NCBI GenBank assembly: GCA_963790795.1 | Contig: CAWBPO010000001.1 | Location: forward strand, 140,073-204,072 | DNA from: an uncultured bacterium | GTDB lineage: Bacteria > Patescibacteriota > Minisyncoccia > Minisyncoccales > RBG-13-42-11 | Length of the DNA: 64,000 nt | Direction of reading: 5' to 3' | Shown here: positions 44,573 to 45,936 of the stretch, in pieces | Position numbering within the stretch: position 1 is the stretch's first letter | How the letters are laid out: each line of letters opens with the position of its first letter | Translations under genes and position numbers: made by a program | The notes under the pieces: generated by a model | Databases searched by the model: none | What the model saw: only the letters and a program-made list of their open reading frames with translations | What the model was told of the DNA's origin: nothing

Positions 44573-45775
44573 TTAGATTAATTTCTTTTTCAAAAAAATG
44601 ATTATTGTTCCGGAAAGAAGAGCAAAACTTAGAGCGGTTAAAAAGACGGGAAAAGGAGTTTTAGTTTTTGGAATTTGTTCGCTGACAGTTGCCAATTGTT
44701 GGGTTTCAAATTGGTTTCCTTCTGTCTCTTTTTGGCTGTTTTCAGATTGGCCAGTTGATAAGGGCAATATATTGGTTGATCCCGGAGTTAAGACAGCGCT
44801 CCAAACCCAGTCATTTTCTATCCTATTATACGATTCGCCCCTAGGAGCTTTTTTATAGCTTACGCTGTCTGTTACGTTTCCGTTCGGCTGAATAAATGAT
44901 AACCCATCTTCGCCATTATTCAAAGTAATTTTAGTGGTTGGCCGTTCAATGATCAAAAATCCTTTAGATTTAATTTTTGTATTAGAAGGAAAAGTGTAAA
45001 TGTTGGTTTGGCCAACAACATCAACTATTTGCCAGTTGGAAAGGTCTATTTCAAAATCGTTCTGATTGAAAATTTCAATCTATTCTTCTTTTTCATCTTG
45101 TCCTTCAGGAGAGGGAAGGACTTCATTAATAATAATGCCAGAAGGATAATCCTTTTGCGTCTGTTGAGGGTTCGCCTCAACGGTTTTTTCGCTTTCTTGT
45201 TGAGGATAGTTTTCAGCAAGGATGTTTTTACTTTTTGGCGTTCCTCCTGGGGATTGGCTTGCCTGCCAATTTCCAGCGTCATCCCCCGATAATTCAGAAA
45301 CTTTTCTTTCCATTGTTTGTTTCGTGCTGTTGTCTCAGTTAAACCATTTAGAAGAGCAATCAACTTCATCTATTAATTTACCAGAAGAGTCAAAAAGACT
45401 TAATAATTCTCCGTTGTTGCTCAATGCGCCGCTGTAAATTTTATCAGCTGAAATATCTTGTACCGTATTATCATTGGTTCTTTCTATTAAGTAAAAAGAA
45501 AAAGCAGAGATTGAGCCGCTTAGGTTTATTTTGGGCGTTCCATCTTGGGAAATTACTTGCCAATTATCAAGGATTATTGGATGTCCTGTGTTGTTATATA
45601 ATTCTATCCATTCGTCGCTTGAGGAAACGTTTGTTCCCATCCAGGCGATTTCATTTATGACCACTTCCAAAGGTTCAGCGGCTTGTGTGCCGAATGCGGC
45701 AGAAAGAAACAAAAAAACTAAAAAAATTAGCCTGAGTTTCAAACAAATGTTTCCAGGTCTTGACAAAGATATCAT
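44573..45775 (-). pseudogene. Two-lamin-tail-domain (LTD) surface protein with C-terminal TM anchor, one frame interrupted by in-frame TGA and TAG
   Basis: The track ORFs 45335-45775, 45080-45313 and 44573-44956 all share one frame (end coordinates are equal mod 3). LTD1 reads VVINEIAWMGTNVSSSDEWIELYNN and LTD2 reads IIINEVLPSPEGQDEKEE*IEIFNQ. The stops are at 45335-45337 (TGA) and 45080-45082 (TAG). Confidence 0.65.
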
Positions 45776-45788
45776 AATCTGTTACAAT
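45760..45788 (+). promoter_or_regulatory. Consensus sigma70 promoter TTGACA-17-TACAAT
   Basis: TTGACA at 45760-45765, exactly 17 nt of spacer, and TACAAT at 45783-45788. It overlaps the divergent LTD start codon at 45773-45775. Confidence 0.65.
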
Positions 45789-45794
45789 ATATCT

Positions 45795-45936
45795 ATTAGA
45801 AAACAGCTCTTGGGCTGGGGGACGGAACCTTTCCTCCTGACGGACCTCCTGGTTTTTACTGGGATAATCCTCAAAAAGGTTTCAAACTTTAGTCCCTAGT
45901 ACTCTAGTCCCCCCAGCCCTGGGGTTGTTTTTATTT
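45795..45936 (+). ncRNA. Candidate stand-alone small RNA (about 140 nt), family unknown
   Basis: It lies between the promoter above and a terminator (CCCCA-gccc-TGGGG then TTGTTTTTATTT, 45911-45936). A 12-bp GC-rich closing helix pairs GGGCTGGGGGAC (45812-45823) with GTCCCCCCAGCCC (45907-45919). An internal helix pairs GGAACCTTT (45824-45832) with AAAGGTTTC (45875-45883). There is no ORF. Confidence 0.5.

Follow-up and report, generated by a model that had tools for sequence, protein, structure and literature searches.

The question raised by the locus considered here is whether a short gap between two genes on the "-" strand holds a gene of its own on the "+" strand and, if so, of what kind. 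The gap, 173 bp long, separates an open reading frame (ORF) for a lamin-tail-domain (LTD) secreted protein from that for an ATPase of the PilB/GspE family (T2SSE; pilB below). It lies in a 64,000-nt stretch of DNA from an uncultured bacterium (GTDB lineage Patescibacteriota; Minisyncoccia; Minisyncoccales; RBG-13-42-11), namely positions 140,073 to 204,072 of the forward strand of contig CAWBPO010000001.1 in assembly GCA_963790795.1. The whole of this stretch is called the window, and coordinates are given in it. A sequence-only reading had proposed that the gap encodes an unclassified, independently transcribed small RNA (sRNA) of ~140 nt with its own promoter and terminator. That core proposal has held up, with conservation at 79 loci and strong covariation, and the comparative sequence evidence supports an independently transcribed small non-coding RNA gene of a previously undescribed family. 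It is well supported that the family is new and that its general kind, the lineage-specific structured sRNA, is a known one.

Promoter, fold and family of the RNA

The promoter, TTGACA and TACAAT separated by 17 nt at 45760-45788, is present just as had been described, with an additional TG. It scores 11/12, making it the top promoter-like site within 44.5–47.5 kb. Sites of the form TTGACA-N16-18-TACAAT occur twice in the 64-kb window against 0.02 expected, and those of the form TTGACA-N17-TAnnnT three times against 0.65 expected. The third of the latter, at 8289-8317 (-), is upstream of an ORF at 6659-8188 (-). The rarity of near-consensus promoters in the window suggests high expression of the RNA in a small genome, the small size being taken from the 539-kb contig to which the window's PilB sequence is assigned in the records. 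With the transcription start site placed ~7 nt past the -10 hexamer and the 3' end within the T-run, the predicted transcript contains no ORF, and there is no ATG anywhere in 45795-45936. Sequence variation across the family is likewise compensatory rather than codon-like. The GC content of the RNA is mildly above that of its surroundings (0.46 vs. 0.31–0.43), a difference that is not informative. The promoter and the parts of the RNA are as follows.

45760-45765, + strand: -35 hexamer TTGACA, kept in 69 of 72 distinct family upstreams
45780-45788, + strand: extended -10 TGTTACAAT (TG at 45780-81 plus TACAAT at 45783-45788), after a 17-nt spacer
45795-45936, + strand: predicted transcript, ~138–142 nt (covariance-model match 45788-45934, 133.7 bits)
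45799-45821, + strand: 5' strand of closing helix P1, made up of P1a (45799-45810), T 45811, unpaired in the model, and P1b GGGCTGGGGG (45812-45821)
45822-45823, + strand: junction J1/2, AC in the window, variable in the family at 2–5 nt
45824-45835, + strand: 5' strand of P2, GGAACCTTTCCT, pairing with 45873-45883
45836-45841, + strand: 5' side of an asymmetric internal loop, CCTGAC (family consensus YUUAGNN), facing UC at 45871-45872
45842-45870, + strand: P3 hairpin, with near-invariant base GGA/UCC, one bulged nucleotide and a 1x1 mismatch
45873-45883, + strand: 3' strand of P2, AAAAAGGTTTC
45884-45908, + strand: J2/4 (AA) and the P4 hairpin ACTTT...AGT, whose loop contains GUYCC
45910-45932, + strand: 3' strand of P1, made up of CCCCCAGCCC (45910-45919), T 45920 and GGGGTTGTTTTT (45921-45932)
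45925-45936, + strand: U-rich tail TTGTTTTTATTT, predicted to form an intrinsic terminator with P1

The "+" strand of 45795-45936 folds at -61.7 kcal/mol (z -5.23, with none of 200 shuffles as stable), whereas its reverse complement reaches a z of only -2.0. The RNA is a three-way junction, in which the closing helix P1, the P2-P3 arm and a weak P4 hairpin meet. Both helices of the sequence-only reading are recovered here: the outer one, in which GGGCTGGGGGAC at 45812-45823 pairs with GTCCCCCCAGCCC at 45907-45919, and the inner one, in which GGAACCTTT at 45824-45832 pairs with AAAGGTTTC at 45875-45883. The closing helix is longer than had been claimed, however. Its pairing continues outward, 45799-45810 with 45921-45932, to make a helix of ~22 bp in the window (45799-45821 with 45910-45932) and 22–23 bp in the family, absorbing the 3' half of the small hairpin that had been assigned to the terminator. 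The minimum free energy (MFE) and centroid structures both use this full P1. Its 3' strand runs directly into the T-run, as it does in most members sampled. The terminator sequence itself was correctly described, with CCCCAGCCCTGGGG at 45911-45924 followed by TTGTTTTTATTT. A duplicated TAGTCCC motif is also present (45890-45896 and 45905-45911), but is limited to the window's subclade and not a family-wide feature.

Relatives were collected in stages. A one-genome-per-species search with the neighbouring ATPase gave 14 loci, from CPR (candidate phyla radiation) metagenome-assembled genomes (MAGs) labelled Nealsonbacteria, Patescibacteria or 'Saccharibacteria'. With nhmmer, the RNA region was found directly after the ATPase gene in eight of these, and a covariance model built from nine sequences added two divergent copies (L007 and L010, at 57–59 bits) in the same position, for 10 of 14 loci. 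JGI metagenome contigs were then searched with a degenerate pattern made from conserved bases. Among the 120 matches listed, 68 score 90–147 bits with the covariance model and are counted as members, a minimum for the metagenomes, while the other 52 have no covariance-model match at E<=0.001. The region and its structure are thus present in 78 loci besides the window's own, and the family comprises at least 79 sequences, 74 of them distinct, of 131–155 nt and with a mean pairwise identity of 61%.

As far as sampled, the family appears confined to a Nealsonbacteria/Paceibacteria-like CPR clade and to one ortholog group of 435-aa ATPases. This clade is large, with more than 8000 ATPase homologs at E<1e-60; identity is 66% or more throughout the best 120 of them. 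No RNA was found beside PilB in the remaining four of the 14 loci (L009, L011, L013 and L014); the PilB homologs of L011 and L013 are longer (514 and 567 aa) and more distant. No copies were found by blastn in phages or plasmids. A single pattern match in IMG/VR is a chance one and not a family member, and a mobile or phage origin was rejected.

Pairing was counted on the 74 distinct sequences over the 47 pairs of the model. Standard pairs form in 93.9% of cells, as against 85.4% after column shuffling and no more than 61% in controls with slid partners; 34 of the 47 pairs have compensatory changes, and none of 500 shuffles reaches any of the observed measures. P1 has 19 of its 22 pairs changed on both sides and 94.7% of cells paired. 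The outer part, P1a, is included in this (pair 20:178, for example, occurs as UA, CG, GU, UG and AU). P2 has 10 pairs, seven of them compensatory, and P3 has 10 pairs, six compensatory, with 97.2% of cells paired. Mutual information with average product correction ranks the model helices at the top and adds two pairs: 68:90 (UA/CG), which leaves P3 continuous apart from one bulged nucleotide, and 27:169, which makes P1 continuous in many members. It gave no long-range tertiary pair beyond the helices, and a looser purine-pyrimidine screen was uninformative. A kissing interaction or pseudoknot between the P3 and P4 loops was considered and rejected, the mean best complementarity being 3.57 bp as against 3.50 in shuffles.

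Three lines of evidence indicate that the "+" strand is the functional one. G-U and U-G combinations outnumber A-C and C-A in paired cells by 420 to 77 (5.5 to 1). Covariance-model scores are 57–147 bits in the forward direction (90–147 except for L007 and L010), and 23–48 in reverse. The "+" strand promoter is also conserved: of 72 distinct upstreams, 67 have TTGAC[AT]-17-TAnnnT, invariably at a spacing of 17 nt, and 47 have the TG; in three of the five apparent exceptions the sequence was clipped at the extraction edge and the promoter is in fact there.

The most conserved residues are the top of P1 (GGGGG/CCCCC), the base of P3 (GGA/UCC) with the unpaired UC that follows it, the YUUAG loop, and AA-ACUU. 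The UC side of the internal loop is at least 97% conserved, and AAACUU, spanning J2/4 and P4, at least 90%. In most members the P3 loop has 4 nt; in the MFE structure of the window it has ~6. Its sequence is of UUCG, GNRA or UUAG type, among others (UUAG, UUCG, GCGA, GAGA, UUUUUA). Because the sequence varies in this way, the P3 cap reads as a structural element and not as a recognition loop. P4 (ACUUU...AAAGU) folds weakly in most sequences, with a loop of UUCC, UCCC or UUUU.

Linkage to pilB and comparison with known RNAs

The RNA is flanked by two genes on the opposite strand, whose relationships to it differ.

45335-45775, - strand: LTD secreted-protein ORF (Pfam PF00932); divergent and variable 5' neighbour, outside the RNA
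45949-47256, - strand: PilB/GspE-family (T2SSE) ATPase gene, 435 aa (Pfam PF00437, E 2e-114); convergent and invariant 3' neighbour

Gene context in the other loci was mapped by tblastn with the window's proteins. Wherever a locus has sequence on the pilB side, the RNA and the ATPase gene meet at their 3' ends, tail-to-tail and often overlapping: in 74 loci the pilB stop codon is between -10 and +84 nt from the end of the RNA model, with a median of about -1. The promoter side is variable: some loci have the LTD gene and others lack it, and insertions of up to ~2.8 kb can precede the next conserved genes, hyp127, YebC, RuvC and TyrRS. On the far side of pilB, its junction with TsaE is sometimes split by ~1 kb. 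Since pilB, LTD, hyp127, YebC and RuvC are all on the strand opposite the RNA, a pilB transcript that ran on past its stop codon would be antisense to the RNA gene. The gap itself has no promoter-like site on the "-" strand. One of the loci without the RNA, L009 (a Nealsonbacteria MAG), keeps the TsaE-PilB-YebC-RuvC-TyrRS synteny; here a 331-aa gene (4111-5106) overlaps the pilB stop codon instead.

Some smaller observations concern the promoter side in the window. Three consecutive "-" strand ORFs occupy 44573-45775, encoding the LTD protein (146 aa), a low-complexity protein (107 aa) and one of 127 aa that resembles an LTD protein's C-terminal half with a membrane anchor added. The three may derive from a single frameshift-broken LTD gene or from two such genes. 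For the first of them, a TTG near 45742 is the likely true start, which would give the signal peptide MKLRLIFLVFLFL. The promoter spacer (45766-45782) contains a conserved CATAAT ~8–9 nt past the -35 hexamer (family consensus CTTGACAAAntTanCATAATcTgtTAnaAT). It is kept also in loci without the LTD gene, so an LTD start on the opposite strand does not explain it. Candidate roles are the binding of a factor and a second -10-like element.

The sequence-only reading could not match the RNA to signal recognition particle (SRP) RNA, 6S RNA, transfer-messenger RNA (tmRNA), RNase P RNA or Y RNA, and no Rfam 15 family matches it in the scans made here either. At gathering thresholds, Rfam 15 finds six tRNAs and nothing else in the whole window. 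At E<=10 over 45700-46000 there is only noise (mir-326 at E 0.42; TCV_H4), with no confident match at the locus, and in 20 other member loci scanned as permissively, no family matched at the RNA in two or more. ARAGORN found no tmRNA, and there was no Rfam match to RNase P RNA. SRP (4.5S) RNA was rejected, with no match at E<=10, a variable apical loop and no helix-8 motifs. So was 6S RNA, for which there is no match and no central bubble, J1/2 being just 2–5 nt and P2 covarying. Y RNA is unlikely, with no Rfam match and no TROVE (Ro/rsr) domain among 10 flanking ORFs. 5S rRNA was also rejected, for want of a covariance-model match and because P1 is 22 bp here. A riboswitch or attenuator would call for a controlled gene downstream on the same strand, but the next gene, pilB, is convergent. 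By eye, none of the K-turn, hammerhead core (CUGANGA), sarcin-ricin-like, T-loop-like or CsrA-type GGA-loop motifs fits the conserved positions. The literature searches made turned up no description of such an RNA, nor any described sRNA family for CPR bacteria.

Several known RNAs nonetheless resemble this one in part. GadY, a cis-encoded antisense sRNA in the gadX-gadW intergenic region of E. coli, is ~100–140 nt long with its own promoter, on the strand opposite a convergent gene whose 3' end it abuts or overlaps, and has further same-strand genes beyond it. Its placement is found here too, the RNA abutting or overlapping the pilB 3' end. A covariation-supported three-way junction and an end-to-end closing helix of 22 bp are not known features of GadY, however, whereas here the "+" strand fold is under selection. 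6S RNA (RF00013) is similar as an abundant-type stable RNA with ends paired in a long stem, ~45 bp of helix and a small central hairpin on the 3' strand, but differs in its large central bubble and its length (~180 nt, as against ~140 nt). Y RNAs and 5S rRNA share a closed terminal helix with a bulge or mismatch, comparable to the bulged C in the local extension of the window's helix. 5S rRNA is also a three-way junction of similar size, but with a terminal helix of ~10 bp rather than 22, and its conserved loop sequences are absent here.

The pRNA of phi29-type phages is alike in architecture only, as a three-way junction of ~120–170 nt in which two hairpin arms join a long helix formed by the 5' and 3' ends. 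We know of no sequence similarity between the two. It works with an oligomeric ASCE ATPase, and the RNA described here is inseparably linked to a gene for a T2SSE ATPase of hexameric type; against this, there is no phage context, loop complementarity is at chance level, and an association with the ATPase is pure speculation. Orphan non-coding RNA motifs, such as raiA and HEARO before a function was assigned, were likewise lineage-restricted, covariation-supported and detected from intergenic conservation. The present family differs from them in having a defined promoter and terminator, a fixed partner gene and CPR hosts.

Possible roles of the RNA

From the covarying P1a, which uses the 3' bases of the small hairpin, and the U-run that directly follows it, we infer that the closing helix and the U-run together are the intrinsic terminator. 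P1 would also seal both ends of the RNA. Since the A-rich 5' end pairs with the U-tail, so that the helix is followed by U-rich sequence on either strand, and since the pilB stop codon abuts it, P1 is probably a bidirectional terminator that ends pilB transcription from the other side too. Bidirectional terminators are pervasive between convergent genes.

What the transcript itself might do is a matter on which we take a position only tentatively. The reading we favor over any one of its competitors is that of a stable, folded RNA that binds protein and acts in trans. It would be a component of a ribonucleoprotein (RNP) or an RNA that sequesters a protein, not a base-pairing regulator, and would be recognized through its core of junction and internal loop. 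This is suggested by the position of the conserved residues, which are in that core and not in a single-stranded seed, and by the structural tetraloop in which P3 usually ends, the burial of both ends and the presence of a very strong promoter in a small genome.

Several points weigh against it. Protein binding is argued here from anatomy only, no conserved three-dimensional motif was recognized, and the by-eye check for a K-turn was negative. The strict tail-to-tail linkage with pilB is not something that an RNP acting in trans requires, and fits a role in cis at least equally well. P4 is the least secure of the helices: 78% of its cells are paired, with one pair alternating between AU and GC, and RNAalifold predicted no structure for the P4 segment alone, the modest support coming from a manually defined helix. 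Finally, the search pattern fixes GCTGGGG, TCCTC, CTT and CCCCAGC, so that their invariance in 68 of the 79 sequences is partly a matter of ascertainment. The full pattern is matched by only five of the 10 genome-locus members found through synteny, and four of the loci (L007, L008, L010 and L012) vary in P1b, with compensation.

A role in cis is the strongest competitor, if an improbable one. The RNA could be a GadY-like module, fully complementary to the pilB 3' UTR (untranslated region) or to read-through from pilB toward LTD and YebC. Convergent transcription from the strong promoter, together with sRNA-mRNA duplexes, would set the 3' end and stability of the pilB mRNA and insulate the downstream genes, with P1 as a shared bidirectional terminator. 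The junction of the RNA with pilB never breaks in the 74 loci, compared with a variable promoter side and a pilB-TsaE junction that is sometimes split. The antisense course of pilB read-through, the "-" strand of the gap with no promoter-like site, the U-rich tract left on both strands by the pairing of P1a with the tail, and the precedents of GadY and of bidirectional terminators in general all agree with such a module. An antisense or terminator role has no need of a three-way junction, tetraloop caps or near-invariant core residues, however. The G-U excess points to selection on the "+" strand fold, P1a being weakened on the "-" strand by A-C mismatches, and L009 retains both the synteny and the pilB ortholog without the RNA. 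Further down the scale is a base-pairing sRNA acting in trans, in which AAACUUU, the GUYCC of the P4 loop or CUCCUC would pair with ribosome-binding sites of mRNAs and regulate their translation. This would suit a standalone promoter and terminator, the conservation of AAACUU and a weak P4 that could open, and the C/U-rich motifs resemble the anti-Shine-Dalgarno-like seeds of sRNAs that act independently of Hfq. We consider it doubtful, as there is no long, conserved single-stranded seed, P3 pairing takes up the UCC of CUCCUC in 97% of cells, the P4 loop varies in sequence, and the ends and most of the remainder are locked in helices.

The other alternatives rank lower. A housekeeping RNA (6S, SRP/4.5S, Y or 5S-like) so divergent in CPR bacteria as to be missed by the Rfam models would account for the strong constitutive-type promoter, the elongated fold with closed ends and ~45 bp in total, and the single copy per locus in a housekeeping neighbourhood, and 6S sequences are known to diverge quickly. 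It is very unlikely given the lack of any Rfam match at E<=10 in the window and 20 members, of a conserved GNRA apex, SRP helix-8 loops or a 6S-type bubble, of a TROVE/Rsr gene in the 10 neighbouring ORFs scanned, and of the family itself beside the more distant PilB homologs. A self-regulating switch is given equally little weight. The sequence-only reading had taken the closing helix and a local 3' hairpin, CCCCA-gccc-TGGGG with its T-run, to be mutually exclusive. Many members do have a palindrome at the center of P1 (AGCCC-UA-GGGCU), in 48 of 74 sequences the 3' end has the potential for a local hairpin of -4 kcal/mol or lower by the U-run (with 3' bases that the search pattern fixes), and this hairpin could serve as a transient co-transcriptional terminator. 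The idea of exclusive structures is not supported by the comparison, however: the P1a pairs that share the 3' bases of the small hairpin covary, and the candidate 5' local hairpin does not (24:29 is CG in 25, UG in 22, CA in 14 and UA in 11). There is also no downstream gene in the same orientation to control, and the full P1 is the form present in both predicted structures.

Less likely still is a dedicated partner of the adjacent ATPase, in which the RNA would dock on or regulate the PilB/GspE-family hexameric ATPase, as a motor for pili or DNA uptake, in the manner of phi29 pRNA and its packaging ATPase; if true, this far-fetched proposal would explain why, in this episymbiotic CPR clade, no sampled genome with the RNA has it apart from pilB. 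At the bottom of the range is the possibility that there is no RNA gene at all, only a DNA-level inverted repeat or a structured 3' UTR or intergenic element of the "-" strand pilB mRNA. The position directly after the pilB stop codon and helices that can largely form on the "-" strand (z -2.0) could be read in this way, but hardly the "+" strand promoter kept at a fixed 17-nt spacing, the U-run on the "+" strand, the 420 to 77 ratio of G-U to A-C, or reverse covariance-model scores that are 3–4 fold lower.

Whichever protein or transcript it may act on, the RNA is likely important to its host, as judged from the near-consensus promoter, the conserved fold, the lack of a match in Rfam 15 and its retention in a reduced genome. 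CPR genomes are very small, and it has been kept there despite reduction, with a predicted strong promoter and with its fold preserved in at least 74 distinct sequences. The coordinates, covariance model, consensus structure and fixed partner gene provide a handle for metatranscriptome mining and for pull-downs. Were it to prove tied to a pilus or DNA-uptake ATPase, or to be a 6S- or Y-like RNP of the CPR, it would give a new view of regulation in episymbiotic bacteria; as an antisense or terminator module it would still be a clean example of a structured bidirectional terminator RNA. Until a partner or phenotype emerges, it is one of many orphan RNA motifs, if one from a phylum that has been little explored.

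The 61.3-kb unit and the UvrB-MurE spot

The sequence-only reading had pointed to a second non-coding unit, at 61.3 kb, driven by the same promoter hexamers. The hexamers are indeed shared: the unit (61285-61597, +) has a TTGACA-17-TACAAT promoter, with a modest fold z of -2.9 and no Rfam or tmRNA match. Its non-coding character is not supported. A close relative (L136, 853-1476), whose MurE is 87% identical, uses this promoter and leader for a 143-aa ORF that starts with MRERFPTIFGVLAVLL; of that ORF the window keeps a 13-codon remnant, MKTKYPSMFRVLA, followed by a stop. A conserved 5' segment of ~140 nt and a 3' one of ~100 nt flank a deletion of ~300 nt. Most likely, this is a decayed gene for a small secreted protein rather than a non-coding RNA.

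The 5' and 3' UTRs of the 61.3-kb unit can form a helix of ~24 bp, 61329-61354 with 61519-61542 (GGAAACGUCUGACUACCGAAGGGGAG with CUCCCUUCGGAAGUUAGGCUUUCC). The relative seems to keep it (~895-925 with 1400-1430), with what by eye looks like compensatory change, from CCGAAGGGGAG/CUCCCUUCGG to CCGGAGG/CCUCCGG. In bracketing the ORF, this helix resembles the P1 bracket of the sRNA.

The unit is located in the gap between UvrB and MurE, and this gap differs among relatives. In one (L138, ~230-520) it has a different strong promoter, TTGACG-17-TATAAT, driving a short signal-peptide-like ORF that is also a different one, MKKAIQQHWKETLIALGALILTALCSSPVWAHP. In another (L139, 2700-4203) the gap is absent, and MurE is followed by archease and RtcB, an RNA repair/ligation pair. 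Overall, the UvrB-MurE spot appears to host variable genes for small secreted peptides.

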